This document shows positions 45,201 through 62,645 of a DNA stretch of 64,000 nucleotides, one piece after another. Positions within the stretch are counted from its first letter, which is position 1. Each line of letters opens with the position of its first letter. The stretch spans positions 30,041 to 94,040 of IMG/VR virus record IMGVR_UViG_3300002301_000012; one strand, written 5' to 3'. The notes beneath the pieces were generated by a model. That model had not been told where the DNA came from, ran no database searches, and worked only from the letters and a program-made list of their open reading frames with translations. A program made the position numbers and the translations under genes. The DNA comes from a virus.

Positions 45201-46234
45201 TGATCATCAGCACTTATTCTACTTCTTCGACGCAGACCAGTATCAATGACACGGGGCTGATTAGTCCGTTCGCACCCAACATGGCAATATCAGCAGCGAC
45301 TAATGCCAGCGCTGCTGCTCTTACCGTAAGTGCTGCACCATACACCGGAGAGTACGTCACAATCAGCGGTTTTTCTGGATCGTGGGCACCTGCCAATGGA
45401 ACCTTTCAGGCAACAAACCTAAGTTCATCAACGTTTTCTGTTCCAGTAAACAGCACTGGTTTCGGCGCTGTGACTGGCACACCTATTGTTGTGGGAGGGC
45501 TGACGCCACATGTCGAAAAAGGAAATCTTATCCGCGTTTTCATTGATCCAACCGGGTCCGCAAGTCCATCAGATCCTCCTGTGACTATTGTCGACAATAC
45601 CAATACAGGATGGACCACGACATCCTTCCTGAATGTGCCAGGAAACGGAACGATCTTTATTGAAGAAGAGCCTACATGGCGCACAAATGTAAACACTGTG
45701 GCAGCGCCAAACTCATCGGCTCCAGTTCTCAGCAGTCCTGAAACAGTGCCACTTATATCTGTCCCGACGACCAACCTTCAGGGGTTAGTGGCACTAGTTG
45801 AACTGTTGGCGCAAAACGTAAATGGGCTGGACTCTGCTGAACTCGGCGATGGTCTTCGTATGCTTTACATCGTTCCCGGTGCAGGCTCGTCGAATAACAC
45901 GGACGGACCTGTTTATACGATTCCTAACGTTGGGAACACGTTCACGCCAGATCTATCAAAAGGACTTAATCAGTATGTTCTTTTGACTGCAAACTCAATG
46001 ATAAACGCACCGATTAATGTGCCAGCAGGAACAAGCATTACTTGGACTCTGATTATTGATCAGGATAGCGCGGGTGGTCACAATGCGCTACTCCAGCCTG
46101 GCTCTTATTTTACTAACGTGAATATTCTCGGAACTGCTTTGGCAAATACAAGAAGCCAAACCAACTGGGTGACAGATCAATCTGGGAACACGACCATTTC
46201 GGGAACGCCATCTACAGATCAACCTATACCATGA
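42218..46234 (+). CDS. Central tail fibre / host-specificity (gpJ/GTA megatron-like) protein
   Basis: QTS..G..LPIV.G.ARLAGNVIW, LEPMDLV, WGGC.VY.S.DG.SY, L..LRRG.FG and IYFKF..FN motifs. Confidence 0.9.
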   Translation: MSLFKTPNDPNAQNADTAAYSNYTTQTSVIGGALPIVIGKARLAGNVIWIGDWTSSVPGGNSKLSGKGSGGGKGGQTYNYTASFGIVLCQGGPAPAILGSVWKDRSTYVPEGVQSPTPGYFSTGLIGQSPWPYLTSSKPANQALGYSEMVVAWYENANLGSGGAISNYSYEITGQAANVGNVNIASDGVSVTWGGDGAQFNPLIALTGTIVISGLTYNCTWHSPTSLTLSTSYGGSATGLSYSALLGPDALVSDAITFMLTNFNCANMNPAYLGSMAGAGGLANYCIANGLGISPIVNNQDTYSSRLTEWLLVCNSEAFSSEGLIKFATYGDTAITGNGVTFTPNLTPVYTLGLDDFVVGKNTNSPPVQFSRVAAQDINNRMVVEWTNRGNQYNTETMDDEDTWSIDYQVGQRNTGSTISVHSVCLPTVAQQVLTVQLKRNVYMTRKASFTLGWAYSILEPMDLVQVPEQYPSTDYVAVRILTIDEDDNGNLAMTGEVLPFPILTPSLYQKQQSGGFTAGFNALPGSTNVPVFFEATQQMLNQNLVTQLTLFIALSGGPNWGGCAVYASTDGGASYDQVGTQNVGSQQGSLTASLAAVVDTNVPDTTHTLSVNLQESLGDLDTYTQAEADNNVSLCVVDQELMSWKTATLTGSNAFNLTYLRRGVFGSPCTSHASGAFFAQLSGGEAFQFDYQPAGASGIASQGPRVGQTIYFKFPAFNLSGQQQEETSAVTAYPYTLTAPYVRPPLSLKPYSQVYSFAPSGYGYTLAQQNGGSSVEIEGTPPVNSFSKSVTAPSIDFTATVSANAFGLIPAGTWVAQVFAIDSSGLYSTGSNLTEFVSPGFGYQAAFSVSWSSSAVAYEIFTGTSLNNMFGMGKVTPGSIPSSLTLTSIANGGYGPPDQQATNFHARAKQVIHGGIAATTIVSSTFTTVVINCPSAPASNEFANRQLILVSRAGLPATQSFPTQQINGNDTGTPLCTLNITSPGGSFYNPGDLVIISTYSTSSTQTSINDTGLISPFAPNMAISAATNASAAALTVSAAPYTGEYVTISGFSGSWAPANGTFQATNLSSSTFSVPVNSTGFGAVTGTPIVVGGLTPHVEKGNLIRVFIDPTGSASPSDPPVTIVDNTNTGWTTTSFLNVPGNGTIFIEEEPTWRTNVNTVAAPNSSAPVLSSPETVPLISVPTTNLQGLVALVELLAQNVNGLDSAELGDGLRMLYIVPGAGSSNNTDGPVYTIPNVGNTFTPDLSKGLNQYVLLTANSMINAPINVPAGTSITWTLIIDQDSAGGHNALLQPGSYFTNVNILGTALANTRSQTNWVTDQSGNTTISGTPSTDQPIP

Positions 46235-48342
46235 TGAAACCTATTTACTTGTTGCTGATCTTTTCTGGTCTTTGTTACGCACAGGTGACTGTAACTAGCC
46301 CAGCTGTCTTCACTGGCAGTGGGCTGAATGATGCCACGAGTGGCGGTATCTGGACGCCACTGCCGACAAATGCCAGCTATGTCGTTACGATATCAGCCAC
46401 TGGCACGCCAGATCAATTCACATGGACGTTGAATAATGGCACGGCCAGTGCGCCCATTGCAATCACTGGCTCAGTGCAAACACTTTCCAACGGGATCACA
46501 GTCACCTTCGCGGCGACAACGGGGCATTCACTTGCAGACTATTGGACAATAAAGGTGTCGGCGAATAGCTCTTCCTCCAGTGTTAATTGGATTCACAGGC
46601 TCTGGAATGCCATCACACGCACCTCACAGGACAAGATGCGAGACACGGTAAGCGTGAGAGATTTCGGGGCGCAAGGCGACGGCTCCAGCGACGACACTGC
46701 AGCTTTCCAGAACGCCATAAATGCCGTGGCAAAGGCCGGGTACAACGCATCTCAAACCGCTCCTGGAGCAACTGTCCACGTCCCAATTGGTCATTACATA
46801 GTCGGTCCTTTGTTCATGTCCAGGGGTGTTCGTCTTGAATGCGACTCGATGGCAGAGGGCAGCACACTGATGATGAAATCCAACTCCGAGACGATGCTGA
46901 CCTTTTCCAATGCTGCATTTTCCGGGGCCGCGAACTGCTTTATCGATAGCAACGGAAAGACTGGGACGACTGGCATCGAAGAGGATACAACGCCAACGAA
47001 TAACCACTTCTCGAATATTGCCATGAACAACCTTGGGACTTGCGTGACGACTACGAGCGCTTACTTCAATCTGTTTGAGAATGTTCGCTGTTACGGGCCG
47101 ACATCATACGGTTTTTTGTTCGGAAATTCTTCAAATTCATTGACCTGTATAGATTGCAGCGTTTACTCCAGTGCCACCAGCACCCTTTGTTTGCAAGTAG
47201 CTCAATCCCTTGGCGTTACAATCAGCGGTGGAACCTACGAGGCGAATTGCTACATCCAGGTGTATGGCACAAACGGCACGACAATCGCCGGAAACTATTT
47301 TGAGAACGCGACTGGGATGGAATCGCCTTATGGCTGGATAAATCTTGGGATCGGCTCGCCGTACTTAACATCGGGAACCTCGATTACAGGAAACACGTTC
47401 AGGGGCGGCGCGCCCTATGCACTACAAATCCAAGGCGCGGACGGTGTGACAGTCTCGGCTAACGACATCGCAGCCGATACTGATGCCTTTTTCATCGTAA
47501 ACAATGTCGGCGCAACGTATCCAAATAGGGGGCTGAATCTCGGAAATAACACTTACAACATCGGTGGTCTGGGATATGATCCGACAAAGCTGCTTGCATA
47601 CAACGCCAACCCGACGACCGAAAACACGCTGAATTCTAACACAAATCAGGAGGTAATCGATCCGCTTCTGTTCACCGCTCCGCTCTATGGTACGGCTTAT
47701 GCCTTTAAGGAACCGCCTGATCCAAGTATTATGAACAACCAAGCCGCTCTGTATTGGGATGGAACGGCGCTGTGGGCGAAGTTTAAAAACAGTTCTGGTA
47801 CGATATTTCACACTCAGATTTCCGATCCCGGCAATGTGCATACTGTTGGACCAGCCGGAACAGGCGGCCAACTTGTCGTCAATACGCCATCGTTGAATTC
47901 TTCGTTCCCGTCTTGGTTCAATGTCTCTGGAACTTATGGCAGTCTTCTTTCCACTATCATTCTCGACGCTTATGGCGTGCAATCGGGTGGAGGATACACC
48001 TCGAATTTTCTTTTCCGGACATACACGGGGTCCAGCAACACAGGCAGCGTGACGTTCGATAATGGCGGTGGAGTCACTGCCAGTAGTTTGGCTGGAAGCG
48101 GTACAAGGTGTTTGCAGGCAACAAATGCTGGCATGGTTCAGCTTTCAGCGGCCGCCTGCGCGGCGACGCTAACTGCTGGAACAAGCATTTCGATTGTAGG
48201 CAATGCGATAAACAACACAGCACCTTTCCCTGGTGGCACGACCGTAACATATACTGGTGTGCCGACTGGATGCACGTTCACTGGTGGCGTACCAAGCGGT
48301 TGTACATCAACCACTCTGATTTTTACAAACGGTCTGAAATAG
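46231..48342 (+). CDS. Signal-peptide beta-helix (pectate-lyase-3-like) tailspike-like protein
   Basis: MMKPIYLLLIFSGLCYA|Q; RTSQDKMRDTVSVRDFGAQGDGSSDDTAAFQNAI. Confidence 0.85.
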   Translation: MMKPIYLLLIFSGLCYAQVTVTSPAVFTGSGLNDATSGGIWTPLPTNASYVVTISATGTPDQFTWTLNNGTASAPIAITGSVQTLSNGITVTFAATTGHSLADYWTIKVSANSSSSSVNWIHRLWNAITRTSQDKMRDTVSVRDFGAQGDGSSDDTAAFQNAINAVAKAGYNASQTAPGATVHVPIGHYIVGPLFMSRGVRLECDSMAEGSTLMMKSNSETMLTFSNAAFSGAANCFIDSNGKTGTTGIEEDTTPTNNHFSNIAMNNLGTCVTTTSAYFNLFENVRCYGPTSYGFLFGNSSNSLTCIDCSVYSSATSTLCLQVAQSLGVTISGGTYEANCYIQVYGTNGTTIAGNYFENATGMESPYGWINLGIGSPYLTSGTSITGNTFRGGAPYALQIQGADGVTVSANDIAADTDAFFIVNNVGATYPNRGLNLGNNTYNIGGLGYDPTKLLAYNANPTTENTLNSNTNQEVIDPLLFTAPLYGTAYAFKEPPDPSIMNNQAALYWDGTALWAKFKNSSGTIFHTQISDPGNVHTVGPAGTGGQLVVNTPSLNSSFPSWFNVSGTYGSLLSTIILDAYGVQSGGGYTSNFLFRTYTGSSNTGSVTFDNGGGVTASSLAGSGTRCLQATNAGMVQLSAAACAATLTAGTSISIVGNAINNTAPFPGGTTVTYTGVPTGCTFTGGVPSGCTSTTLIFTNGLK

Positions 48343-48378
48343 CGAAAAGCTTGCTTGTTATTGTATACTCGCGGCGAG

Positions 48379-50406
48379 ATGCGAAATTCCCGACTGGTCT
48401 GGGTTGTCTTTGCCGCGACATTGATCGTCGCGTGTTGTGGTCTGTCGTGGCTCGATGGTCAGAGCTTGCAGTCGATACCTGGCGGCGGAAATGGCGGTGT
48501 TGGCGTTGGCGCGACGAATCCAACTGCCACATGCGCTGGCACGGTAACTTCATGTGCTGTAACGATTACGACGCTGGGGTTGACATCAGCCACAATCGAC
48601 ACAGCAATTGCCAAGTGTTACGTCACATCATCTGGTGCTGATCTGCCAATCACTGGATACACCGTCAGCGGCGGTCCTCCTTATACGACCTTTACGCCAA
48701 CGTTTACGAGCACAACTGGCGTCTATTGCACGGTCAACAGCAATGGTGGTCAGGGAGCGACAGGTATCACCGGCGCTATCGGCCCGACTGGAGCCACGGG
48801 AAGCACTGGAGCGACTGGGAGTACTGGTGCAACCGGACCGATCAGCGCGGTTACCGCTTCTTCGCCGTTGGCATCAAGCGGTGGATCTACGCCTAATATA
48901 ACGATCAGTTCCAGTATCGGATCTGGTCCGGTCGTGCTTGAAAATTCTCCTGCACTGACAAGTCCGAACCTCGGCACTCCAACAGTGATCAATTTGACGA
49001 ACGGAACCAATCTGCCGGTATCGACAGGTATCAGCGGATTAGCGACTGGCGTTGCAACGGCTCTGGGAACAGGCGTATCTGGCAGCGGCAGCATCTGTCT
49101 GACATCCGGTTCTTCCTGCGCCGGAGTGACGCTCCAGACAAACGGATCAAACAATGCAAGCCAAACAACACTGAATCTGGTCAATGGTTCGAACGTAACG
49201 CTTACGAACACAGGCGGCGGAACGGTGTCTATCGCGGCGACAGGCGGCGGAAGTGGTTCCGGAATCGGTGCGGCTCTATTTTGTCCTGCTACTGGAGTCT
49301 CTACCGGAACAGCAGTCTGCACGACAACACCGTCAATCTATCCGGCCTGTTATGCGACGACGGGCAGCATCAACCTGAACGTCACCGTCGATAGCAACGT
49401 TGCCGGCCCTACTACACTCAATGTCGACGGATGCGGCGCTCTGAACGTCTACTTCCAGGGGCAACCGTTAAGCGCGAACCAAATGGTAGTTGGCACTGGC
49501 AGCGGCAACATGTACAACATCGGCTACCAGTCAGGCGGCAGCGGACTCTGGCAGATGTCGTATAGCCCAGGCTCTGCTGGCGCGGCCGGACCGACCGGGC
49601 CGACCGGAGCTACTGGTACGGGAGCCACCGGCGCGACGGGTGCGACGGGCGTCACCGGATCGACCGGAGCCACCGGCGCGACAGGCCCACTCGGTTCGGC
49701 GAATACCGTAGTCAGCCACACGTTTGCTTCAGCCGGGTCTTTCAACTACGTTCACAACCAAAACACAGCCTACCCGATCATTACCTGCTGGCAAAACACC
49801 GCTCCCGGCGATATCGGCGTGAGTGTCGGGCTGACAGAAGTCGACGTGAATACAACCTCAGTGACAGTCTCGGGCGCGGCGACGGTTTACTGCGCGTTCA
49901 ATTCAGCGGGTTCGGCTGGTGCCGCGGGAGCCACAGGACCGACTGGTGCAACGGGTGCAACTGGTGCGACAGGTACAGCCGGAGCGACCGGTGCAACGGG
50001 TGCCACCGGCGCGACGGGCAGCATCACCGGAAACATCAAGCAATTCGTCGCCAACTTCTACAATGCTGGCTCGACTTTGGCGACCACGGTATCTCCTGCC
50101 GTCACGATGCAAAACAACTGCACGATTACCGGCTGGTCCCTCACGATTCCATCCACCGACGCTGGTACGGCTACGGTGAAATTCCTTAAAATAGCGGCCG
50201 GAACTTCCTCTCCGACGACGGCTAATTCCATAAACGCAAGCGGGGTCGGTCTGGCAACCGGGACGCATGTCAGATCCACTACGGTGACAGACTTCTCGGT
50301 CGGCACTGGTACTGCCGTCACGCAGGGAGACGTTCTCGCAGTGCAATTATCCGCCGTCGCCTCAATGGTCGGTCCCCTCGTCGTCGGTCTGGAGTGTACG
50401 CAATGA
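48379..50406 (+). CDS. Signal-peptide collagen-like fibre protein
   Basis: Hydrophobic N-terminus ending LDG|Q, three (GAT/GPT/GST)n tracts, and SP.L..P.LGTP fibre motif. Confidence 0.85.
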   Translation: MRNSRLVWVVFAATLIVACCGLSWLDGQSLQSIPGGGNGGVGVGATNPTATCAGTVTSCAVTITTLGLTSATIDTAIAKCYVTSSGADLPITGYTVSGGPPYTTFTPTFTSTTGVYCTVNSNGGQGATGITGAIGPTGATGSTGATGSTGATGPISAVTASSPLASSGGSTPNITISSSIGSGPVVLENSPALTSPNLGTPTVINLTNGTNLPVSTGISGLATGVATALGTGVSGSGSICLTSGSSCAGVTLQTNGSNNASQTTLNLVNGSNVTLTNTGGGTVSIAATGGGSGSGIGAALFCPATGVSTGTAVCTTTPSIYPACYATTGSINLNVTVDSNVAGPTTLNVDGCGALNVYFQGQPLSANQMVVGTGSGNMYNIGYQSGGSGLWQMSYSPGSAGAAGPTGPTGATGTGATGATGATGVTGSTGATGATGPLGSANTVVSHTFASAGSFNYVHNQNTAYPIITCWQNTAPGDIGVSVGLTEVDVNTTSVTVSGAATVYCAFNSAGSAGAAGATGPTGATGATGATGTAGATGATGATGATGSITGNIKQFVANFYNAGSTLATTVSPAVTMQNNCTITGWSLTIPSTDAGTATVKFLKIAAGTSSPTTANSINASGVGLATGTHVRSTTVTDFSVGTGTAVTQGDVLAVQLSAVASMVGPLVVGLECTQ

Positions 50407-51845: not shown

Positions 51846-51869
51846 AAAATATCTATGCTCAGTAGAAAA
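51831..51869 (+). repeat. 19-bp tandem duplication at a gene junction
   Basis: atctatgctcagtagaaaa at 51831 and 51851. Confidence 0.9.
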
Positions 51870-54800
51870 CTCATAGTTCTGGCGATGATCGCATTGCCGT
51901 GCTTCGGTCAGGCGACAGCCAATGGTGTGTTCAGCGAGCAGTTCAATGGCGCAAATACTCAGTGGACAATCGGCGGGACCGGCGTAACGTATAGCGGAAC
52001 AACGACACCGGGGATGTCGGTAACGAACGCCACAGCGGGACAGGCCAGCGCTTCATGGACGGTCGGCAGTTCACCGTTCACACTGACCTACCAGATGCCG
52101 TCGCTATCCGTCTGGCAGAACCAGACTGGACTGACTGGCATGGTGTTCGGCATATCCACCGGCGTGCCTGGGTCGATGACATCTGCCGACTACTCCTATG
52201 TTGTGGCGATCACAAAGACTGGCTTTTATTGCAGCGCGCGCACCGGAGACGTGCTGCCGAACAGCGGCGGTGCCATGGCAGGCACGGATCTATCAAATCT
52301 CGGAACGGGCGGAAGTCGTCACTTTGTCAATGCTGCATACTCGACCATCGCATGGCCTGTGTCTTCCAGTCAGGCAGCGATTCCTCAGAACTGGAACTGG
52401 TGGGTAACTATATCCCGCGATGGCAGCAACAATGCGACGTTCTCGATCTTCACGGATCAGTTTCAGGGCGGTACTGTGGCCTATTACAGCGGCACGTGGG
52501 CGATTACGTCGACGTACCGAACCAAGTCGATAGCAAACGTGTGGATGGTGAATGAGACATCAGGCGGCGGTGGAAACACCTTGGTGACCGCGCTCGTGAA
52601 TAACATCTATGGATACACGTCGGTGACGGGTGGAACGGCTCACACGGTGACGAGCGTCGTACCGAGCGGAGGGTCTACGACGTTTCAATCCGGCAATACG
52701 GTAACGATCACCGGAACGAACTTCGACAACTCCAGCGCGTATACGGTCAATGTCGGCGCGGGCAGCACATTGCAATCGGTGACGGCTTCCTACGTGAGCG
52801 CAACGACCCTTACTGCAACATTACCGACCGAAAGCAATTCCGCTACGCCATACCTGTTCCAAGTGACGCGGAATGGAATCAACGCTCTCCTGCAAAGCGG
52901 GATTACATACTCCGGACCGGTTGTCTACAGCATGGACCCGCACGAGGTGCCCCTGATACCTGCCAACTCGGCAGACGGTACGATCACGATCACAGGTGCC
53001 GGATTCGATGCGACCACAGCCGTGACTATCGGCGGCACTGCGGCTACTGTAACGGTTGTCGATCCATGCCACCTAAGCGTCATAGTTCCCTCGGGCAGTG
53101 CTGGACTGCCAACTGTGCTGGTCACAATTGCCAGCGGCGCGACCACGGTCTATAACTCAGCCAGCAGCGGCACCTATCCACCAGCCGGAAAGGTGAACTT
53201 CGGGTATGCGCCTCATCCATACATGCACTTCACACCGACCACGCTTACCGCAATCCAGGCGAAATACTCGAATCCGGCATATGTGAACTATCGGTGGATG
53301 ATGGATGCGGAGATCACACCACCGCTGGCCTATACGTCTAATCCGCTGAACCAGTGTCCCAGCTACCCGCCGACCGGCTGCACTTCCGGCTATACGACGC
53401 AGACCACCGGCGCATACGGATACCACTATCTTCTCGCGCAGGACTCAGCATCTCTTACCGCGTTCAATTCCGCAGTCTACTCTGTGTCGTCGACGAGCAA
53501 CGACCTCGGTTTGGTCCAACTGGCGCAGATCGCATGGGGAGCCAACAATGTTCCGTTCAATCTCGGGACTGCCGATACTCTCGGCGTGATGTATGACGCG
53601 CTGTTTCCGACGCTGACTCCCGCGCAGCGGATCTTGTGGCTGAATATGCTCGACTCGGCCTGCAATGGGTTCTACTACATGTGGGCCACGCAGGACGCAA
53701 ACACGTACCCGGCCGGTAACAGTTGGGATAACCGCATCGCAGTCGCCAATGGCGGCGGAGGATCGGCGGCAGTGGCTGTGGCCTTCTCTCTGGCACATCT
53801 CAAGGGATACACGACCGGATCTCCGTGGCTGGCCATCACTGGCGTGACGCTTACCAACGATGCCGTGTCCAGCCTCGTGACGCTGACCGACAACTACGGA
53901 AACAATGAGTGGCTTGCCGATGGGACCGGTGTCGAAGGAGCCTTTTATTCGGACTACGGCGGCATCGCCTACCTTCGCTTTGCGGATGCGATCTGTGGGT
54001 TGAACACGTACAAAGGCACTAGCCCTTGTGATCAGGGAACGTTCTCGACACACTTCAGCAGCTTTGCCACATGGGCCAAGAATACTTTGTGGAACGGCTT
54101 CAACTGGGATACGTGGAGCGATACCCAACCGCAATACAACCTTCTGCCTTCGCTGATTTTCTGGTGCCAGCACAGTGCAGTACCGCAGGCGTGCTTCATG
54201 GCCGACACGCTGGCTCAACAGGTGGCAGCCAATCAACTTGGAGGCTTGTGGATCAATACGATGACGGTGCTTCCGGCATCATACTCGGATTCGTTCTATG
54301 ACTTCATCTGGAGAGATCAGACGACTTATCCCGGTTCCTTTACGTCGTTTCCGACACTGGGCGTACAGGCGACAGGACAGCAAGCGAGGATGCGAAGCAA
54401 CACTAACTGGGACGCTGACTTCTCGATAGCGCTGAAGGGAAAATCGGCAAACGAAGACTCGGACGGCCACAATCACCCAGACCAAGGCGGAATCACCATG
54501 AACTATCAGGATGAGTGGTTCCTGATCGATCCAGGCTATGAAATTCCGGCTGCGGCGAACCATTCGATTCTGATCGTGGACGGAGTATCGCCGACCATTA
54601 GTTCTCAGGGCACGCACACGGCCACAATCGACACGACGCAGAACCAAGACGCGAACAACTGGCACTGCGCCACAGTGAACGCCAAAAATGCCTACCTGAC
54701 GGATGTGACTCTATTGAGGCGCAATGTCTGCCTGTACGCCAACCTTTCAACCGGTGTGCGGGTCGGTGTGGTGCTCGATGACATCGCGCAAAGCGGAGCC

Positions 54801-55214
54801 GGTTCTGTGCAGGGGCTTTGGCAGACAGGCAGAGCAGTTTCCAATGTCACAAGTGCTGGATTCCAGATCAACGGCTACCTGAATACGATGTTCGTTCGGT
54901 GGTTTGGGCCGACGTCTTCATCGGGTTTACAGGCAGTTTCACTCGATTGCTCGACGGGCGCTCCGTCGTGGGCATTTTGCCAGTTGCAGCCAGCGGGAAT
55001 CTCCTACAGCGCGGTGCAGGACGCCTACACGGATTCATCGACACAACCGCGTGTGACCTGCTTCTCGCCACAAAGCGTGAACGGTGGGCCGGCAGCGGCA
55101 ACATGTTCCGTGGCTTATACCTCGGGAACGGTCACCCTGACGTTGAGCAACGGCGCTGGAGCGGTCTGGACGAATGGAACGGGAACATGGAATCTTTCGA
55201 GCGTGACTCCGTAA
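51855..55214 (+). CDS. Signal-peptide protein with two IPT/TIG domains and a heparinase II/III-like lyase domain
   Basis: CFG|Q; VTITGTNF and ITITGAGF; EG..Y..YG; GHNHPDQG.I......FLIDPGY...NHSILIVDG. Confidence 0.8.
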   Translation: MLSRKLIVLAMIALPCFGQATANGVFSEQFNGANTQWTIGGTGVTYSGTTTPGMSVTNATAGQASASWTVGSSPFTLTYQMPSLSVWQNQTGLTGMVFGISTGVPGSMTSADYSYVVAITKTGFYCSARTGDVLPNSGGAMAGTDLSNLGTGGSRHFVNAAYSTIAWPVSSSQAAIPQNWNWWVTISRDGSNNATFSIFTDQFQGGTVAYYSGTWAITSTYRTKSIANVWMVNETSGGGGNTLVTALVNNIYGYTSVTGGTAHTVTSVVPSGGSTTFQSGNTVTITGTNFDNSSAYTVNVGAGSTLQSVTASYVSATTLTATLPTESNSATPYLFQVTRNGINALLQSGITYSGPVVYSMDPHEVPLIPANSADGTITITGAGFDATTAVTIGGTAATVTVVDPCHLSVIVPSGSAGLPTVLVTIASGATTVYNSASSGTYPPAGKVNFGYAPHPYMHFTPTTLTAIQAKYSNPAYVNYRWMMDAEITPPLAYTSNPLNQCPSYPPTGCTSGYTTQTTGAYGYHYLLAQDSASLTAFNSAVYSVSSTSNDLGLVQLAQIAWGANNVPFNLGTADTLGVMYDALFPTLTPAQRILWLNMLDSACNGFYYMWATQDANTYPAGNSWDNRIAVANGGGGSAAVAVAFSLAHLKGYTTGSPWLAITGVTLTNDAVSSLVTLTDNYGNNEWLADGTGVEGAFYSDYGGIAYLRFADAICGLNTYKGTSPCDQGTFSTHFSSFATWAKNTLWNGFNWDTWSDTQPQYNLLPSLIFWCQHSAVPQACFMADTLAQQVAANQLGGLWINTMTVLPASYSDSFYDFIWRDQTTYPGSFTSFPTLGVQATGQQARMRSNTNWDADFSIALKGKSANEDSDGHNHPDQGGITMNYQDEWFLIDPGYEIPAAANHSILIVDGVSPTISSQGTHTATIDTTQNQDANNWHCATVNAKNAYLTDVTLLRRNVCLYANLSTGVRVGVVLDDIAQSGAGSVQGLWQTGRAVSNVTSAGFQINGYLNTMFVRWFGPTSSSGLQAVSLDCSTGAPSWAFCQLQPAGISYSAVQDAYTDSSTQPRVTCFSPQSVNGGPAAATCSVAYTSGTVTLTLSNGAGAVWTNGTGTWNLSSVTP

Positions 55215-55225
55215 AGGAATGGCAA

Positions 55226-57052
55226 ATGAAGAAAAATAAACTTACACAAAAACCGCGCGAGAGTAACCTTGGCCTCATTCTCGCAGTTATAGTGATCGCG
55301 CTGTGCGTTATTGCACTTCCCGCGCACGGGCAATCAGTGGATCTTCAGCAGCGGAATATCGCGCACGGCGCGTCACTGCCAAGTAATTGCACTGTCGGCG
55401 ATGAGTTCGACCTGACATCGGCAACTGCGGGCCAGAACTATTATCTCTGCACTGCGAGCAATACTTTCACACAGCAGGCAGGCGGCGGGGGAGGAGGTAC
55501 ATCTGCCGTGTTTGCCGGATCTGCATCTCCTGCGCCATCTTTCTCTGCAACTCCGACTTTCTCACTCGCTGCGGTATCCAATCAGAGTCCGCTTCGCATC
55601 GAGCCTGGAGTTATGACAGCCAACGTCACTGCCGTTACATTCTCAAACGTGACGGCTGGTGCTAAGTTTTCAATTGCATGGACACAGGCTGCCTCTGGTG
55701 GCCCATATACCGTTACCTATGGCGGATCGACAGTTAATACATGCGCGATCTCACCGATTGCTTCCGTTATCACTGTGCAGGAATTCGAGGTTGGAAACGA
55801 CGGTTCCACCGTGAAGGGCACGTCGTGCTCGTCCAGTGAGACTGGTGTAATACGAAACGTGGAAGTCTCCAATCCTTCAGCGCCGAGTGCTGGCTATGCA
55901 CTGAACGGGGATTCGACCAACCATGTCCTGCACTACGTGGACAGCACACAGGCCAGCGTAACCGCCGTGCCCGTCACCTGCACGAACCAGGTAGCTACGG
56001 CACTGAGTGCGGCTGGTGTCTTCACGTGTACCTCGATCACCAGCGCTTATGTTTCAGGCACTACGGGAACCGGTAACTTCGTTTTGGCAACATCTCCTAC
56101 CTTGGTAACACCTGCTCTCGGTACTCCGGCCAGCGGTAACGCAAGCAACCTGACGAACCTTCCGATCACGTTGACAACTACCGGAACCAGCGGTGCGGCA
56201 ACATACACGCAAAGCACGAGCACGCTCAATATCCCGCAGTATGCTGGCGGATCTACAGGAACGGTCGGAGGCTGCGGCAGCGCGGGAATAAATGCGAAGA
56301 CTGGCAGTTATACCTTAACGTCCAGCGATGCTGGATACCTGGTTACCTACAACGGGTCTTCTCTCACAGCTACACTGTACGCATCGCCAGCGTCCGGGTA
56401 TCAAGCCTGCATCGAAAATCTGAACGCTTCCCCGTTGACGGTTGCCACAAATTCTCTTCAGTACAACACTGCGACAACATCGATCACGCTTCAGCAGTAC
56501 CAGACCATATCATTTTCGTCCAACGGAACCAATTATTTCGGCACTATACCGAGTGTGGCCGGAACTGGAAACTCATTTACTCAGGCCAGTAATGGACAGA
56601 CGCAGGCTGCGACCACTGCCTATCAACGTCGGTCTTGCACTTTCGACAATGATTTCATCGGCACAGCGATGGTCGCTGGTGACTTCACCGGAAAGTGTGT
56701 AGTTCCTTTTGCGGCTACCATTGTCGAGGTTGACGTAAGCGGCGGAACGGGAACCTCGACTGCGGCAACGGCACCAACGTATTCCGGAACCGGCTCCATT
56801 CAGATAGGTAAGCATGGGGCGTCGAACTCCACAGCACTGCTTTCCGGCGCACTGGCGACGGCTTCTGGTGTAGCGTGTGCATTGACCACTACATCGGGAA
56901 CATGCTTGTTCAATAACGCCATGACATCCAGTTCCAGTATCACAATTTCCACCACGACTCTTGCAGTCGGTGACCAGCTTTATATTCTTCCCGGCACGCC
57001 CGATGGAACACAGACTTGGTACAGCGTGACGGTAGTGTTCACGGCAAACTAA
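55226..57052 (+). CDS. Signal-peptide tail-fibre-like protein
   Basis: AHG|Q; LPSNCTVG...YLCTASNT; GTGNFVLATSPTLVTPALGTP; NAKTGSYTL..SD.G. Confidence 0.8.
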   Translation: MKKNKLTQKPRESNLGLILAVIVIALCVIALPAHGQSVDLQQRNIAHGASLPSNCTVGDEFDLTSATAGQNYYLCTASNTFTQQAGGGGGGTSAVFAGSASPAPSFSATPTFSLAAVSNQSPLRIEPGVMTANVTAVTFSNVTAGAKFSIAWTQAASGGPYTVTYGGSTVNTCAISPIASVITVQEFEVGNDGSTVKGTSCSSSETGVIRNVEVSNPSAPSAGYALNGDSTNHVLHYVDSTQASVTAVPVTCTNQVATALSAAGVFTCTSITSAYVSGTTGTGNFVLATSPTLVTPALGTPASGNASNLTNLPITLTTTGTSGAATYTQSTSTLNIPQYAGGSTGTVGGCGSAGINAKTGSYTLTSSDAGYLVTYNGSSLTATLYASPASGYQACIENLNASPLTVATNSLQYNTATTSITLQQYQTISFSSNGTNYFGTIPSVAGTGNSFTQASNGQTQAATTAYQRRSCTFDNDFIGTAMVAGDFTGKCVVPFAATIVEVDVSGGTGTSTAATAPTYSGTGSIQIGKHGASNSTALLSGALATASGVACALTTTSGTCLFNNAMTSSSSITISTTTLAVGDQLYILPGTPDGTQTWYSVTVVFTAN

Positions 57053-57592
57053 ATGAAACTATTTACGAATGGCTTTCCAAAGGCAGGAAATCACGCGCTG
57101 GTCAAGGCGTGCGAACTGCTCGGCGCAACGTGTGAGGTAAATCACTCCACGTTTGCCGAATGGCGTCCGGACGGCACATCGCATACCGTGATGATCATCC
57201 GTGATCCGCGCGACATCGTGATATCGTTTCTTCGGTTTAATGGTAAACAGGTAAATCCAGGTGAGTTCATGTCTGCGGTCCGCGAGTTTCGGCCCGATAC
57301 TTCTCTCGTCGGCGAACTAGCCAAATTTGAAGGATGGCTCTACAGCGATTCGCTGATCGTCCGCTATGAGGCTTTGATCACAGATGACAGAGAAATGCGA
57401 CGTATCGCGAAGTTCCTTGGACTTGACTATGAAGAAGGCGTGTGGGAGGATCTTCCTGGTCGAACGTGGACATGGAACGAAGTCCACTCGGACTATCGCA
57501 CCATCTGGAACGATGCGATCGAATCTGAATGGGCTGCGGTCGGTGGAAATCAGTTGCTGGAACGTTGGGGGTACGAACCGTGGAAATCCTGA
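57053..57592 (+). CDS. PAPS-dependent sulfotransferase
   Basis: GFPKAGNHAL (5'-PSB loop), IIRDPRDIVIS (3'-PB) and VRYEAL...RIAKFLGL. Confidence 0.85.
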   Translation: MKLFTNGFPKAGNHALVKACELLGATCEVNHSTFAEWRPDGTSHTVMIIRDPRDIVISFLRFNGKQVNPGEFMSAVREFRPDTSLVGELAKFEGWLYSDSLIVRYEALITDDREMRRIAKFLGLDYEEGVWEDLPGRTWTWNEVHSDYRTIWNDAIESEWAAVGGNQLLERWGYEPWKS

Positions 57593-59073
57593 TTCACACG
57601 CGACACAAAGAGCATCCATCCACTGTTAAGCCAGGCGACGTCATCACTATTCAACGGGACGGCTGGCCATGGAGTAAGATCGAGCGCACGCATCCGGAAT
57701 GGCGAATCATAAAAACCGGCGAACTGCACGGCACCCACGTCACATGTCTCCAGTCTTCTCCCGTGCTGAATCCGTGTTCGCACTTTCGCGCATGGGCTAT
57801 CGACTTCGACAAGCTATCCGCGGCCGATCAGTTCTGCGGTGCGCGGCGGTCCGTCTTTGTTGCGGTGGATGCCAAAGAGTTGCGGAAGGCCACTATCCAA
57901 AGACCGGACGTCTCTGATGTCGAGCCGAATCCTTCCCGTGTCGATCCACTAGTCGCCGCTATTCCATTTGCCGCCTCTCTGAATAAGCCATCGCGCAGGG
58001 GAATACTGAAAGGCATCCTCGGCGTATCAGCGCTGATGTTGATGCGACAGAAAGCTCAAGCAGGCACTGTCACGAGCACTATTGGGACTTCCAGCCGGAA
58101 CTATTCGACGATTGCCGCCTGGATCGCGAGCCTTCCGTCAAACGCAGTCACCGCAGGAAACAGTTACATCGGAGCCTGCTATAACGATTCCGAGTTCACA
58201 GGTACCGGAACGATTGCTACTTTCACTGCGATCACGACCGATTCCAGCCACACGATCACACTGACGGCGGCCACGGGTCAAAGTTTTCAAGACAATGCCG
58301 GGGTTCGGACCAACGCGCTGAAATACAACCAGTCAAATGGTGTCGGCGTTCGGAAGACTGACAACTATGCTGCGATTGTGCAGATTAGCGGCATAGTTAA
58401 TTATCTGACTTTAAGCAGGTTACAACTTAGCCGATCTGCCACAGGAGCGGGATCGGTCGTGCTACTCGACAACGTAGGATGCACAAATTTGCTATGCACA
58501 AATTTGCTATGCAATGTGGCAGGCAGCAGTGGTACTCCGTGGACCGTTGGCGTAACCGGTGGGTCGGTTGTCTGCTCCAATGTTCTGATCATCGTCAATA
58601 GCAGCAATGCTCTGACTTCTATATTTAATAATAATGGCGGACCTACTCTGTTTGTAGGGTGCTCTGCTGTCAGGCCATCGGACAAGACCGCCGGCGGAAT
58701 AGCCTTCACGTCTGCGGCCGGAAGCCCGACGCTTCAGTCTTCCTGTTCATTCGGATTCACCACCGCATCTTCAGGCACGTGGGGCGGCAGTTCTCAAAAA
58801 AATGCGACTGACCAAAGCAGCATAGCCGGAACCAGCAGTCAGACAAGCATTACCTACAGTTCGGCTACACCATTCCAGGACGCTGCCAGTACGGCGCTCG
58901 ATCTGAGGGCTATAGCCGCAACGTCTCTGGTCGGTAACGGTTATCTGGACTCCACCAACGCTCCGAATGACATCAGCGGATCTCCTCGACCGTCCAATCC
59001 GACCATCGGAGTATGGGAGGACAATCCGTTTACTCCGTCACCAGTACCACATCATAAGGTGGTCAGTAATTGA
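57580..59073 (+). CDS. Small phage domain fused to a Tat-motif beta-helix protein
   Basis: Internal SRRGILKG...AQA at 57991-58062; IGT..R.YSTI.AW; DI.G.PR...PTIG.WE. Confidence 0.75.
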   Translation: MEILIHTRHKEHPSTVKPGDVITIQRDGWPWSKIERTHPEWRIIKTGELHGTHVTCLQSSPVLNPCSHFRAWAIDFDKLSAADQFCGARRSVFVAVDAKELRKATIQRPDVSDVEPNPSRVDPLVAAIPFAASLNKPSRRGILKGILGVSALMLMRQKAQAGTVTSTIGTSSRNYSTIAAWIASLPSNAVTAGNSYIGACYNDSEFTGTGTIATFTAITTDSSHTITLTAATGQSFQDNAGVRTNALKYNQSNGVGVRKTDNYAAIVQISGIVNYLTLSRLQLSRSATGAGSVVLLDNVGCTNLLCTNLLCNVAGSSGTPWTVGVTGGSVVCSNVLIIVNSSNALTSIFNNNGGPTLFVGCSAVRPSDKTAGGIAFTSAAGSPTLQSSCSFGFTTASSGTWGGSSQKNATDQSSIAGTSSQTSITYSSATPFQDAASTALDLRAIAATSLVGNGYLDSTNAPNDISGSPRPSNPTIGVWEDNPFTPSPVPHHKVVSN

Positions 59074-62000
59074 AAGTAATTAGAATATCTGTTAGCGTTG
59101 TGGCGTTTTTTTTGGCGGTGTCCGCCTGTGCGCAAACTATAGGCTGGACGAAAGAAACCAACCCTGTACCGGGATACACCAATGGGGGATATGAAAACCC
59201 AACCGGAGCATACGATCCGGTGTCGGGGAGGAATGTTCTTCACGTTCTGAAGGTTTTCGGATCAAGCACGAGCTACGTTCATTTGGTAAATGGCTCTCCT
59301 ACCGTAACAAGGGTAAGCGGAGATTTTTTTTCGGCGATCTGGACGTGGCCGGATCAAATCTCTGTTGCCGGGTATGGATTCATGAAGGTCGCCTCTGGCA
59401 CCACACCGACTAGCTGCACTTCTGGAATTCCAATCTCATGCACTGTATTCACGGCTACTACCAATTTTACCGGAACCACCGGGAATTATACATGGACTGC
59501 AGCCTCAACCTCTATCTACAGTGATCTGTTTGGGTTTTATCAGGCTTCTACTAACTCATTCATAGCCGGTCCAGGATGGGGAAGTCTGCATCGTCAATGC
59601 TATACGGATTCATCCATTTACAACCTACCAGACGCCAGACAAGCAGGGAACTGGGCAACAGATACAAAGCGAAACCGTCTGTACCTTGGCGGAGGCGTCA
59701 ACAATGGTTGCCAATGGGATGTCACGACGAATGGCACCAGCACCGTGACGATAAACCTTGCGCAGGGACTGTATTTTATTCCAGGCAGCCTATATGTAGG
59801 CATACAAGTAGCCATTCCTGGAAACGGTTCTACCTACTATACGGTTGCCAGCGTGCCCGACGAGCAGCATATGACAATCAACTGCGGCGGATCGTATCCA
59901 GCATGTCCGAACGGTCCGGTAACAGCCTTTCTGGCTCCCTCCAACATGTATCCGGGGGGGATCAATCAGTTGACGGACATGGGATACCTTTCCCTTAACA
60001 GTGATCCGACCACTGATACATGGACCCAGTTGCCGCAATCCTCTGTGGCCGGATTCTCCGGTCCGTTTTACGTGACATCAATGGCCTATGATACCATCGA
60101 CGATGCCATCGTACTGTTCGGAGAAGTTGGCGGACATACCAGCACTTATGTGATGTGTTCGGCTGACGGTAACGTTGGCGGCACGCTGACATCTGCACAA
60201 TTGGCGGTTGGGTGCGTAACCAGTAACGTGTTCGTTCAGGTTACGACCAATACGCCGCCCCCTGGTTTGTACGATCCGTTTGTCACTTATGACCATGCAT
60301 TCGGCGTGATCTGGCAAACCGGAGGATCTTCTTTGATAACGCAAGCCACAAACCAGACTGATGTCTGGAAATACACGCCATCCACAAAAACATGGGCACA
60401 GATGAACACGACAAACCAGCCCTCTCAGACTAGCCTGGTAGAATTCTTTCCCCCTGTTATTTTTAACTCCTCGTCGGACTGCATCGTAACGCATGTTCCA
60501 GATGTGCCGCAGACGAAGCAATGGTGTCCCGCGATCAGCAACGCATGGGTGACGCTTACGGCATCTGGCTCCAGCATCCCAACTTGCTCAAACCCGGGTG
60601 GAGGAAACTGTGGAACGTCGGGAATTATGACGACATACGATCCGAACACCGGAAATTTTTTGGCTGTACAGCAGACGCTATCGGTTTACCCTAATATGTG
60701 GCAGGGGCAATTACCAGTGCCACCTACAATCACAAGTTCCTCGGCACTGACAACGGCAGTACAGGGATCTGTCTACACATGGACGTTTGTTGGCATAGGA
60801 GAGATGCCGATCACATGGTCTGTGTCTGGTGGCAGCCTACCGGCCGGCCTGACCCTGAACTCCAGCAGTGGGATACTTTCGGGCACTCCCTCAGTGCGTG
60901 GACTGTTTTCTTTCGTCGTGCAGGCGGCAAATGGGATTTCTCCGAATGCCACACAAAATATTACTTTGTTGATAGATCCACCTATCACTGATCTTGGAAT
61001 CGGCCACTCTACTTACAACTGTCTCGATGTAGACGGGGACGGTTACGGCGTTGGTCCCGGATGTCTGGGGCCGGATGCGGACGACAACGACGCCACCGTT
61101 CATTCCTATTCCGATGTGATCACAACGTATGGATCGCTTGCTACATTCTGGCTTCACATGGGATGGGCACTTACGGGAGTGTTGTACGTGGACGGCGGGT
61201 CTGGCAGTTGCGCTTCAGTTTCCACCCCTTTTACTTATTCGGCCACAACAGCCTGTGCTACCATTGACGCGGCCATAACGGCGATGACAGCGGGACAGGC
61301 GGTCGTCATGCGCTCGGTAACGCAGAACCGCACTACTCCAGTACAGCTAAAGGCCGGAACGCTGAGTGGAAGCACGTGCACAGCGTATTCGTACTACCTG
61401 GCTTACCCTGGCGAGCAGCCGGATTTTGAATATAATTCGGACTCCAATGGTGCCGGTTTTTCTTCTGGAACGCAAAGCTGCTTCGTGCTGGACGGCATGA
61501 AATTTTATCAGTCATGTCTTGCCAATAAGACTTGCAGCGGGGGCGGATATGGGATGGCAAATAGCACGACGGTCTATGGCATGACGTACAGCCACAACGA
61601 TGTGGGAGGCTTTACAGACAACATCTTTATCCAGTACAACCAGATGGGCACGCAGATAACTCATGATTACGTACACGATTCTTACGCTGGAGGCGATTTC
61701 GGACACGGTATCTATCTGGGAAGCAACGTAACCACCAGTTCCGGGACGACCATACAGGGGAACATTTTTCTGAACGCTGAACAAGCATGTATCCATGCAA
61801 ACGGGCCGATGACATCTATTCTGATTGACTCTAACATGATCTACGGATGCAACCAGGGTATATTGTTTCAGTCCGGGGTCGCTCACTCGACCGTGCAGAA
61901 CAACACACTGCACACAGTCGCTACGACACCATTCGAGTTGAATACCTACGCAAACTCGTACTCGACCAATCCATGGCAATGCCATGACGAGAACTACAAC

Positions 62001-62645
62001 CTCATCGTGAATAACACGATCTTCATGGACGGGCAAAGCTATAATACTAGCATCGTCACCGACGAGGACTCCGGACACGGCGACATCGAAGTCATAGATG
62101 ACGGCACCTGTCAGGCGCAGGCCGGGTATACTCCCGACCTCGGACACAACACGTACAGTAACAACCTGTTGGTACATTACTGCGGAACGAACTGCGTCGA
62201 TTACATCGGGCCGATTGTGCGGTACGGCGGAACACAAGACGTAACTTACAGGACTTCGGACACCTATTCAAATAACCTTTTGAATAACTACGATGCCGCT
62301 ACGCATATCATCGATCCATTGGATAACGTGGTATTCCAGAACTGTTCGTGGTTCGAGAACACGGCCAACATCCCATTGGCCAGTGGAACGGTTTGCGGCT
62401 CCAGCCCGCTTTTTGTTGCCGCGAATCCGCAATGGAACACGCTTCCGCAGAACTGGAATCTGGCAGTATACTCCACTTCTCCCGCTGTAAACGCAGCGCT
62501 GGCGTCCACCGCGCCGGCTTACGACATCGTGGGCAATATCAGGCAGAGCACGCCGACCATTGGTGCATACGACATGTCCTTAAACCAGTCGTATACGGGA
62601 GCGAGTGGATTCGGGTTCGTGTTCTCTGGCAGCGCGATTCACTGA
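59070..62645 (+). CDS. Signal-peptide multidomain protein: kelch-like propeller, Ig-like, DxDGDG Ca-binding motif, beta-helix
   Basis: ACA|Q; DVWKYTP..KTW; GSLPAGLTLNSSSG.LSGTP; CLDVDGDGYG...D.DDND; SPAVNA...DI.G..R...TIGAY. Confidence 0.85.
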   Translation: MKVIRISVSVVAFFLAVSACAQTIGWTKETNPVPGYTNGGYENPTGAYDPVSGRNVLHVLKVFGSSTSYVHLVNGSPTVTRVSGDFFSAIWTWPDQISVAGYGFMKVASGTTPTSCTSGIPISCTVFTATTNFTGTTGNYTWTAASTSIYSDLFGFYQASTNSFIAGPGWGSLHRQCYTDSSIYNLPDARQAGNWATDTKRNRLYLGGGVNNGCQWDVTTNGTSTVTINLAQGLYFIPGSLYVGIQVAIPGNGSTYYTVASVPDEQHMTINCGGSYPACPNGPVTAFLAPSNMYPGGINQLTDMGYLSLNSDPTTDTWTQLPQSSVAGFSGPFYVTSMAYDTIDDAIVLFGEVGGHTSTYVMCSADGNVGGTLTSAQLAVGCVTSNVFVQVTTNTPPPGLYDPFVTYDHAFGVIWQTGGSSLITQATNQTDVWKYTPSTKTWAQMNTTNQPSQTSLVEFFPPVIFNSSSDCIVTHVPDVPQTKQWCPAISNAWVTLTASGSSIPTCSNPGGGNCGTSGIMTTYDPNTGNFLAVQQTLSVYPNMWQGQLPVPPTITSSSALTTAVQGSVYTWTFVGIGEMPITWSVSGGSLPAGLTLNSSSGILSGTPSVRGLFSFVVQAANGISPNATQNITLLIDPPITDLGIGHSTYNCLDVDGDGYGVGPGCLGPDADDNDATVHSYSDVITTYGSLATFWLHMGWALTGVLYVDGGSGSCASVSTPFTYSATTACATIDAAITAMTAGQAVVMRSVTQNRTTPVQLKAGTLSGSTCTAYSYYLAYPGEQPDFEYNSDSNGAGFSSGTQSCFVLDGMKFYQSCLANKTCSGGGYGMANSTTVYGMTYSHNDVGGFTDNIFIQYNQMGTQITHDYVHDSYAGGDFGHGIYLGSNVTTSSGTTIQGNIFLNAEQACIHANGPMTSILIDSNMIYGCNQGILFQSGVAHSTVQNNTLHTVATTPFELNTYANSYSTNPWQCHDENYNLIVNNTIFMDGQSYNTSIVTDEDSGHGDIEVIDDGTCQAQAGYTPDLGHNTYSNNLLVHYCGTNCVDYIGPIVRYGGTQDVTYRTSDTYSNNLLNNYDAATHIIDPLDNVVFQNCSWFENTANIPLASGTVCGSSPLFVAANPQWNTLPQNWNLAVYSTSPAVNAALASTAPAYDIVGNIRQSTPTIGAYDMSLNQSYTGASGFGFVFSGSAIH

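Follow-up and report, generated by a model that had tools for sequence, protein, structure and literature searches.

Tailed phage particles are classically built in the cytoplasm of the infected cell, an assembly scheme that does not cover exported fibre-like proteins. Known tailspikes and depolymerases, such as those of Sf6 (gp14), HK620 and CBA120 (TSP3), are right-handed β-helices with a pectate-lyase-type start motif, and their genes lie behind that of the central fibre in the tail module. Their N-terminus is a particle-binding domain, they lack signal peptides, and folding takes place in the cytoplasm. Shiga toxin, in contrast, is encoded in a late operon, exported through Sec, assembled in the periplasm and released at lysis. 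Secreted and SAR endolysins are late phage proteins that also use the host Sec pathway and wait outside the cytoplasm until lysis (PMC6116005). In Pantoea stewartii, the chromosomally encoded WceF, part of an exopolysaccharide (EPS) cluster, is a tailspike-fold β-helix glycanase that is exported via Tat by a normal 28-residue N-terminal signal and acts on the cell's own exopolysaccharide (PMC7949094). The mosaic adhesive trimer (MAT) fibres of Bdellovibrio consist of a signal, a conserved β-rich N-domain and mosaic phage-fibre-like C-termini; they are cellular and surface-anchored, work outside the cytoplasm and in many cases carry a C-terminal S74 chaperone-protease (PMC10769870). In Porphyromonas phages, predicted cleavage exposes Gln in the products of five genes of unknown function, which has been read as an adaptation to host secretion (PMC10367356); the 'Bacteroidetes Q rule' itself was defined elsewhere (PMC5837995).

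The locus described here lies in a window of 64,000 nt that corresponds to positions 30,041-94,040 of the virus record IMGVR_UViG_3300002301_000012; all gene coordinates are window positions. The full record is 94 kb long and comes from a soil-type phage. The central fibre or host-specificity protein J (42218-46234, plus strand) matches Pfam Phage-tail_3 and Rcc01698_C and a PHROG tail protein, and its N-terminus has no hydrophobic segment of the signal-peptide type. A genome-collection search with the J alignment gave no matches, and a metagenome search with J gave two distant relatives only. J is followed by eight densely packed genes, A to H, all on the plus strand, whose neighbours overlap or are separated by gaps of 0-36 nt, and the stop codon of J runs into the start codon of A (ATGA). 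Within the array, internal promoters do not exceed the chance level. The possibility that the array is host DNA past the end of a prophage is ruled out by the 94-kb virus record, the coupling to J and the recurrence of the layout in viral contigs. Apart from J, no receptor-binding or side-fibre candidates were found elsewhere in the genome.

Sec-type signal peptides open six of the eight genes after J (A, B, C, D, E and H), in agreement with the original prediction and on the combined evidence of heuristic scores, start analysis and conservation in homologues. The signal calls were made with a strict heuristic of our own rather than a trained predictor; it replaced a looser version that flagged many spurious ORFs. 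In a scan of 116 ORFs of at least 150 aa across the whole 94-kb genome, A, B, C, D, H and a head-module gene at 23870 score 4.9 or above, and all remaining ORFs of this size score below 4.5. E lies outside the start range of that scan and scores 6.1 from its real start in a variant of the heuristic without a Gln bonus, which gives scores about 0.8 lower at Gln sites. The core virion proteins, used as negative controls, have no such N-termini by the same heuristic. The basic n-region, the hydrophobic core of 7-15 residues and the small residues at -3 and -1 fit fully in A, C, D and H. The cores of B and E are longer, at 17 residues and near transmembrane length, and the Gln site of B has Leu at -3. 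The head-module gene (23870-24400, plus strand, 176 aa) has a strong Shine-Dalgarno site and a signal peptide ending in SEA|Q, and follows the array pattern as anticipated; its score of 5.8 is the second in the genome, after H at 6.23. It has no family match.

For five of the signals (A, B, C, D and H), the distance between the first start codon in frame and the beginning of the hydrophobic segment is zero to a few codons. E differs: its credible start, ATG 55226, is the eighth start codon in frame, and the long ORF from 54818 overlaps D and is not credible as E. Together with the tight gene spacing, the closeness of the signals to first start codons argues against true starts 3' of the hydrophobic segments, a weakness that the original prediction had itself considered.

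The signal layout is retained in diverged homologues while the sequence drifts. Signals are kept in 8 of 8 members of the D family, in the H relative P0023 and, together with Gln, in about 30 of 39 collinear A homologues. The post-J genes of two sister phages are also signal-bearing, and the suggested survey of related phages found signals on differing post-fibre genes in L001/L002, L003, L006, L008 and L095. In sister phages and in unrelated ones, the signals recur on post-fibre genes that are non-homologous. Targeting of the array proteins for export is thus well supported at the level of predicted sequence features. Since almost every large gene after J carries a secretion signal, the proteins probably mature outside the cytoplasm, the compartment in which the virus particle is built. 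No outer-membrane anchor, type IX secretion (T9SS) or autotransporter domain or S74 chaperone was found in the array proteins with Pfam and NCBIfam; T9SS cargo is ruled out by the lack of a C-terminal sorting domain in the same searches. No report of exported tail fibres was found in the literature.

Of the six array signals, five have Gln immediately after the most probable cleavage site (+1), namely A (CYA|Q), B (LDG|Q), D (CFG|Q), E (AHG|Q) and H (ACA|Q), and so has the 23870 gene. The five predicted sites are recovered, those of B, D and E not uniquely: without the Gln bonus the heuristic chooses other cleavage sites there, so these three rest on conservation and inspection. The closest genome matches are Terriglobia and Bryobacteraceae MAGs, and the host is therefore probably an acidobacterium. 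In a Terriglobia MAG, 21 of the 60 heuristic signals have Gln at +1, where 3.9% would be expected, and the small-x-small|Gln signal ends of the array appear to follow a pattern also used by the likely host lineage. A Bacteroidota host was considered and ruled out in favour of Acidobacteriota from the genome matches and the +1 Gln of the Terriglobia MAG. The Porphyromonas genes belong to Bacteroidota phages and none is named as a tail part (PMC10367356), whereas the signals described here open a whole 16-kb fibre/depolymerase array with a likely Acidobacteriota host.

A (46231-48342, plus strand) consists of a signal peptide (46231-46281), a β-sandwich of about 90 aa and a tailspike-like β-helix. 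It matches Pfam Pect-lyase_RHGA_epim and 11 PHROG tail or tailspike families. Folds were modelled for A and G only; the AF2 model of A places the β-sandwich at residues 19-110, with pLDDT above 90, and the β-helix at about 140-470. The Foldseek matches include the Sf6, HK620 and CBA120 tailspikes and also AlgE, GH87 and RbmB, with A equally close to the secreted enzymes RbmB and AlgE and to the tailspikes. A is likewise a right-handed β-helix with a pectate-lyase-type start motif, and its gene likewise has its place in the tail module behind that of the central fibre; in place of the particle-binding domain of the known tailspikes, however, it has a signal and the β-sandwich. The N-domain has no PDB sequence match. 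The A family joins a constant N-module to variable, swapped C-termini, the classic fibre design, and the first gene after J in sister phages starts with the same N-module, in one of them followed by a common 60-residue C-terminus. In the prophage L045, the N-module comes after an ordinary signal-less fibre N-terminus, a place taken in A by the signal. The module can be repeated in tandem, with up to 13 copies in one protein, and in this respect resembles a stalk or a sugar-binding unit more closely than a domain for specific docking. The signal, β-rich N-domain and variable C-termini reproduce the arrangement of the MAT fibres, a likeness of layout only. The array belongs to a phage late operon, and no array protein has a Pfam Peptidase_S74 match.

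B (48379-50406, ATG, plus strand) is a collagen-repeat fibre-like protein behind a signal peptide at 48379-48459, with a lipobox-like IVA|C as the alternative to LDG|Q. It matches Pfam Collagen and PHROG tail fibre families and, weakly, the NCBIfam Scl/Lcl collagen-adhesin. C (start 50403 or 50406, end 51845, plus strand) has a signal peptide (AMA|A; score 4.9) followed by a 460-aa protein, for which no match was found in Pfam, PHROG or NCBIfam and no relative in the viral contigs searched. E (55226-57052, plus strand) is fibre-like after a signal at 55226-55330 with a long basic n-region; its hydrophobic core is long enough that it may instead serve as an uncleaved anchor. The single relative of E in viral contigs matches its C-terminus only and sits in L095, where it lies among six consecutive genes with signals. 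The predicted fibre motifs are present: A has a pectate-lyase/tailspike start, B has collagen, and B and E have a 39-residue fibre block in common. PHROG tail families match A and B; C, D, E, G and H have no such match.

D (51855-55214, plus strand) contains a signal peptide (51855-51908), TIG domains and a heparinase II/III-like polysaccharide-lyase half. The TIG match is to Pfam, and Hepar_II_III_C remains sub-threshold at 17 bits against a cut-off of 24. A profile of the D family, whose members share 34-94% identity and an invariant Gln19, has a match of E=4.6e-8 to PDB 8khw, a DUF4962 protein, and weak ones to PL17 lyases. D thereby resembles, and is predicted to be, a heparinase-type or PL17-type lyase. 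H (59070-62645, plus strand) starts at a TTG preceded by the Shine-Dalgarno sequence AAGGTGG. Its signal (59070-59132), with a lipobox VSA|C as the alternative to ACA|Q, is followed by an N-terminal region, an Ig domain matching Pfam He_PIG and a C-terminal region that ends in a choice-of-anchor-Q-like motif, just sub-threshold for NCBIfam choice_anch_Q. The homologue P0023, at 40% identity, has precomputed Kelch and He_PIG domains and also an N-terminal signal with Gln.

F (57053-57592, plus strand) is a sulfotransferase-like protein (Pfam Sulfotransfer_1, E=2.3e-7) that has no signal and is taken as cytoplasmic; the F-G gene order is retained in the viral contig L006. G (57580-59073, plus strand) is composed of a partner domain (57580 to about 57924), a Tat-like twin-arginine signal (57991-58062, AQA|G) and a β-helix (58063-59070). 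The original prediction had given this seventh ORF a Tat motif. The motif is present, as SRRGILK, an 11-residue hydrophobic core and RQKAQA|G, but begins at residue 138 of a 497-aa fusion protein, so a simple N-terminal Tat signal in G is in doubt. Two internal starts, GTG 57865 and TTG 57880, would make the motif N-terminal, and neither has a clear Shine-Dalgarno site. Of 119 G homologues, about 115 lack a signal, are about 335 aa long and start exactly at the predicted cleavage site of G, and the N-domain is a separate small 5' gene in at least 13 other viral loci. In all five fused orthologues (the window and four relatives), the fusion runs through the twin arginines, a hydrophobic stretch and an AxA-like end; two G relatives have lipoprotein-like signals. 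The AF2 model shows a helix at 139-157 and a β-helix at 162-450, with weak Foldseek matches (E about 4e-3 to 4e-2, none at or below 0.001) to pectate lyase Pel9A, pectin methylesterases and fucoidan lyase. No match to the β-helix was found among GenBank phages, none to G among PDB sequences and none to the N-domain in the ESM Atlas. WceF is the nearest known analogue, both for G and for an array of free enzymes; G differs in being phage-encoded and in carrying its twin-arginine element after a fused domain of about 135 residues.

The closely spaced Cys pairs that were noted earlier are reflected in composition. Cys makes up 1.97% of the mature array proteins, against 0.98% of the core virion proteins, and the mature count is even in A, B (14), C (10), E and H (28), and in 9 of 11 proteins when relatives are included (P=0.03). 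This pairing suggests an oxidising compartment.

A to E and H carry Sec-type signals, all but that of C with a host-like Gln site, and G a conserved twin-arginine element. Two fates had been proposed for such proteins, appendages that mature in the periplasm and join virions at or after lysis, or secreted matrix-remodelling or surface proteins. The premise of export is well supported, and the sequence evidence divides between free or secreted enzymes and virion fibres. The best explanation, tentative as a whole, is that A to H make up a single late operon whose products bind or cut glycans outside the cytoplasm, and periplasm-matured, lysis-released proteins are, with similar reserve, favoured over fibres that dock after membrane permeabilisation. 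Sec would pass the unfolded chains into the periplasm, where signal peptidase I would trim them and disulfides would form; G would fold in the cytoplasm with the aid of its fused partner domain and then exit via Tat. The proteins would build up outside the cytoplasm in late infection, and lysis or an earlier secretion would set them loose as soluble enzymes and adhesins. In this state they could strip or loosen host capsule and exopolysaccharide, helping progeny to escape and reach adjacent cells, rather than serving as tail parts mounted in the cytoplasm. The lyase-like D, the sulfotransferase inside the array, the weakly enzyme-like β-helix of G, the likeness of A to RbmB and AlgE, the precedents of WceF and Shiga toxin, the place of the signal in A where L045 has a fibre N-terminus, and the lack of an anchor module common to A-H favour free enzymes. 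Secreted endolysins and Shiga toxin differ in being lysis enzymes or toxins, not fibre-like or glycan-active arrays. Against free enzymes, the array occupies the side-fibre position of a siphovirus and is translationally coupled to J, the A family has a fibre design, and both the collagen tracts and the B/E block are of a kind usual in virion fibres; periplasmic enzymes would also need lysis or a further secretion step to reach an extracellular polymer.

These same features would fit a second explanation, judged somewhat unlikely, in which the genuine side fibres or spikes of the phage are at least A, B and E, and perhaps also H, which would pass into the periplasm and there be trimmed and acquire disulfides. 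Docking onto cytoplasm-built tails would follow only once the holin has breached the inner membrane, with the outer membrane still confining the cell contents, or just after lysis. The placement of A immediately behind J, whose stop overlaps the A start, the PHROG tailspike and tail-fibre matches of A and B, and the constant N-module, which heads the post-J genes of sister phages and occurs in the signal-less tail fibre of L045, all point this way, as does the lack of another side-fibre candidate in the genome. However, tails assemble in the cytoplasm, across a membrane from the exported proteins. The N-termini of A-H reveal no common anchor or docking module and no adaptor protein, which leaves seven different large proteins without a shared means of attachment. 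D, F and G are enzyme-like rather than fibre-like, the tandem repeats of the A N-module suit a stalk or sugar-binding role, and no published case was found. A broader form of this explanation, a little more doubtful still, posits an extracytoplasmic branch of assembly, in which the fibres and spikes of this phage and many uncultured relatives would be exported via Sec or Tat and matured in the periplasm, with pyroglutamate trimming, disulfides and a docking step delayed until the holin has opened the inner membrane.

Display on the host envelope, during infection or lysogeny, is improbable. The proteins would there mask or destroy receptors, giving superinfection exclusion or protecting progeny from debris, or act as MAT-like adhesins. 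Genes for the exported proteins T5 Llp and Cor lie next to fibre genes, and the MAT-like layout of the A family, the lipobox-like alternatives in B and H, the lipoprotein-like signals of the two G relatives and an integrase-like gene beside the L095 array, recognised by its N-terminal sequence only, are consistent with such a role. The lack of internal promoters and the tight coupling to late genes make expression in lysogeny unlikely, however; outer-membrane anchors, T9SS or autotransporter domains and an S74 chaperone are missing from the Pfam and NCBIfam results, and 16 kb is a large outlay for exclusion. Retention on the cytoplasmic side, with the hydrophobic N-termini as assembly or membrane-tethering helices or uncleaved anchors, is very improbable: the long cores of B and E, the crude heuristic with its shifting B, D and E cleavage sites and the internal motif of G would allow it, but all six signals have the full n/h/c layout with small -3/-1 residues (Leu at -3 in B apart), the layout outlasts sequence drift, +1 Gln is enriched as in the host lineage and the Cys pairing suggests an oxidising compartment.

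In conclusion, annotation pipelines that call every gene after the central fibre a 'tail fibre' overlook a consistent targeting signal. Gln after the cleavage site, described as a Bacteroidetes trait, seems to reach Acidobacteriota and their phages, and offers a cheap cue for host prediction. If the exported proteins do dock onto virions, the rule of wholly cytoplasmic tailed-phage assembly would need amending, and host-range engineering would have to allow for signal peptides. If, as favoured here, they act as free glycan-active proteins, soil phages would carry large secreted polysaccharide-degrading toolkits, a possible source of stable, disulfide-bonded depolymerases, with a bearing on biofilm and soil-carbon turnover.

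The virus record is a single sequence of 94,040 bp, of which the window is the final 64 kb; no tRNA genes were found. Judged by its genes, the genome is siphovirus-type with a GTA-like tail tip. The tail module comprises a tape measure (34450-36657), a distal tail protein (DUF2460, 36659-37342), a hub (phiJL001-gp84/BR0599, 37747-39285) and the 1338-aa central fibre J (42218-46234), which carries Phage-tail_3 and Rcc01698_C domains. A gene at 41365-41943, located after the tail peptidase region and before J, encodes a protein of 192 aa whose N-terminus is strongly hydrophobic and which may be a membrane protein within the tail module. After J, eight genes (A-H) occupy the plus strand at 46231-62645, with neighbours overlapping or lying 0-36 nt apart, and promoter-like or terminator-like sites across this array do not exceed the frequency seen in shuffled sequence. 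The tight spacing and the lack of excess sites suggest that the array forms the distal end of the late operon.

Review of all in-frame starts bears out the six Sec-type signals of the original prediction, five with Gln at +1 of the predicted cleavage site and one, C, with Ala. The signals end in CYA|Q in A (start 46231), LDG|Q in B (ATG 48379; a lipobox-like IVA|C is the alternative), AMA|A in C (50403/50406), CFG|Q in D (51855) and ACA|Q in H (TTG 59070, with a good Shine-Dalgarno site; alternative VSA|C). Read from ATG 55226, its credible start, E shows an extended basic n-region followed by a core of 17 residues and by AHG|Q; a start at 54818 was dropped, as that ORF overlaps D. A heuristic demanding a basic n-region, a hydrophobic core free of charge, small residues at -3/-1 and a polar mature start was applied to the 116 ORFs of at least 150 aa in the entire 94-kb genome. 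Scores of 4.9 or more are confined to A, B, C, D, H and the head-module gene at 23870-24400; all remaining scanned ORFs fall below 4.5, the lower hits being mostly spurious antisense ORFs. From its true start E scores 6.1 in a variant lacking the Gln bonus, in which Gln sites come out about 0.8 lower. Removing the bonus moves the cleavage site in B, D and E, whose Gln sites are based on inspection and conservation. The core virion proteins, proposed earlier as negative controls, behave as such: the heuristic finds no signal-type N-terminus in portal-MuF, capsid, tube, tape measure, Dit, hub or J. The 23870-24400 gene, coupled to the portal-MuF gene end behind a strong Shine-Dalgarno site, encodes 176 aa with a predicted SEA|Q signal; it scores second only to H and fits the array pattern as had been proposed, and no family match was found for it. 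Outside the window, in the early region, an 848-aa protein (G000:C1:6886-9432, minus strand) has a signal-like N-terminus with a weaker score of 3.9.

Conservation provides the strongest evidence that these predicted signals exceed chance. Seven full-length relatives of D were found, 34-94% identical, and all eight proteins begin with a hydrophobic signal of drifting sequence in which Gln19 is invariant. A search of 1.8 billion representatives returned 3,914 hits to the A family; the signal count was limited to the 39 collinear from residue 1, of which about 30 open with a signal whose cleavage site reads A|Q or G|Q. Directly after the signal, A-type proteins carry a conserved domain (FTGSGLNDATSGG ... 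TGTPD.F.W), followed by variable C-termini (500-1200 aa). An H relative, P0023, likewise has an N-terminal signal with Gln. In two sister phages (L001 and L002), where J is 59% identical, the first post-J gene again overlaps the J stop, and three different post-J genes carry CFA|Q, LWS|Q and VSA|Q; in L002 the first two are seen, as the third ORF there is annotated from a start farther downstream, which leaves the signal out. Similar runs occur in the unrelated viral contigs L003, L006, L008 and L095, the last a 48.7-kb contig with six consecutive signal-bearing genes (L095:97-8323), four with Gln at +1, adjoining an integrase/tyrosine recombinase-like gene as judged by N-terminal sequence only.

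The closely spaced Cys pairs noted originally are also present. Cysteine makes up 1.97% of the mature array proteins vs 0.98% of core virion proteins (tube 0.4%, tape measure and Dit 0); in the array, many cysteines come as closely spaced pairs. Each of A (12), B (14), C (10), E (12) and H (28) has an even number in its mature form, and with relatives added the same holds for 9 of 11 proteins (P=0.03). This pattern fits oxidative folding outside the cytoplasm.

Typical fibre motifs are confirmed in A and B. The AF2 model of A (mean pLDDT 78) shows a signal helix, a confident β-sandwich at residues 19-110 and a β-helix at about 140-470, which matches the Sf6, HK620 and CBA120 tailspikes and, equally well, the secreted bacterial enzymes AlgE, GH87 and RbmB. 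For the N-domain of about 90 residues (46285-46560), neither Pfam nor the PDB gave a match; thousands of proteins contain it, as a single copy, internally or in tandem runs of up to 13, and it also turns up in MAG contigs that carry the labels Patescibacteria, Planctomycetota, Desulfobacterota and archaea. B has collagen tracts and PHROG tail-fibre matches, and shares a 39-residue fibre block with E. D combines TIG domains with a C-terminal half that is probably a relative of the DUF4962/heparinase II-III/PL17 lyases; H has a He_PIG domain and an end resembling choice-of-anchor-Q, and P0023 Kelch and He_PIG domains. C and E received no family assignment.

F (57053-57592) is a sulfotransferase-like protein without a signal and directly precedes G, an order kept in L006 (sulfotransferase-like gene at L006:7478-8002), an otherwise different contig; this hints that the two genes work together, perhaps on a polymer that bears sulfate. 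The twin-arginine motif predicted for G stands and is conserved in fused relatives, but it is internal, after a fused small-protein domain, and not N-terminal. The C-terminal domain of G belongs to a large family of ~335-aa proteins, about 115 of 119 of which are signal-less and start precisely at the predicted AQA|G cleavage point. Immediately upstream of the signal-less β-helix gene, at least 13 viral loci have a separate small gene; its product of 100-150 aa (104-174 if counted from the first start codon) shows the motif ELLVRV.DK ... KRGDVI ... W.W ... NP.WRII and no Pfam, PDB or Atlas match. The small protein is found at 57580-57924 in the window (fused to G) and in L007, L009-L013, L019-L022, L029, L031, L035 and L036. 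In this phage and four relatives, one ORF joins the small protein, a conserved RR/hydrophobic/AxA element and the β-helix; the twin-arginine element is therefore real and conserved, yet internal. The AF2 model of G has a helix at 139-157 and a confident β-helix at 162-450, the latter with weak Foldseek likeness to Pel9A, pectin methylesterases and a fucoidan lyase (E about 4e-3 to 4e-2). The N-domain would act in the cytoplasm as a folding partner, after which Tat would export the folded helix and cleavage would free it; alternatively, G may be an uncleaved N-in/C-out anchor. A second twin-arginine-like N-terminus, SRRGFLGMLASAAVA, appears at 15400-15921 in the terminase-portal island if read from an internal Met.

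The best genome matches of the A N-module lie in a prophage-like region of a Terriglobia MAG (L045, 55% identity), where the domain comes after a fibre N-terminus of the usual kind without a signal, and in Bryobacteraceae MAGs (46-54%, signal included; L046). In 400 kb of the Terriglobia MAG (L075-L094, G001:C1:1-400000), 21 of 60 heuristic signals, picked without the Gln bonus, have Gln at +1 (background 3.9%, P about 4e-15). Published work describes Gln at +1 of signal peptidase I substrates as a trait of Bacteroidetes (PMC5837995), and five Porphyromonas phage genes of unknown function have been noted to show it (PMC10367356). Here the feature fits an acidobacterial host, which makes processing by the host signal peptidase more likely. 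The 'Bacteroidetes Q rule' may thus extend to Acidobacteriota.

With a probability a little short of one half, the array products are free enzymes, released by lysis or secreted. The lyase-like and methylesterase-like folds, the embedded sulfotransferase, the absence of a shared anchor or any common N-terminal module among A-H, and the signal of A in the place of the L045 adaptor count for this reading, as does Shiga toxin, a late product that is Sec-exported and lysis-released. WceF, a Tat-exported glycanase of tailspike fold (PMC7949094), counts likewise. Virion fibres that dock after export are a rather unlikely alternative, favoured by the position after J and coupling to it, by the pairing of a constant N-terminus with variable C-termini in the A family, a design that persists in the first post-J gene of the sister phages, by the PHROG fibre matches and by the lack of any other side-fibre candidate; literature searches turned up no account of tailed phages that export their tail fibres. 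Surface display, by analogy with Bdellovibrio MAT fibres (PMC10769870), appears improbable, and, set against their conservation, it is very improbable that the N-terminal segments are not export signals. The occurrence of Sec-type and Tat-type elements on unrelated proteins of one array suggests that the whole module has been selected for a location outside the cytoplasm.
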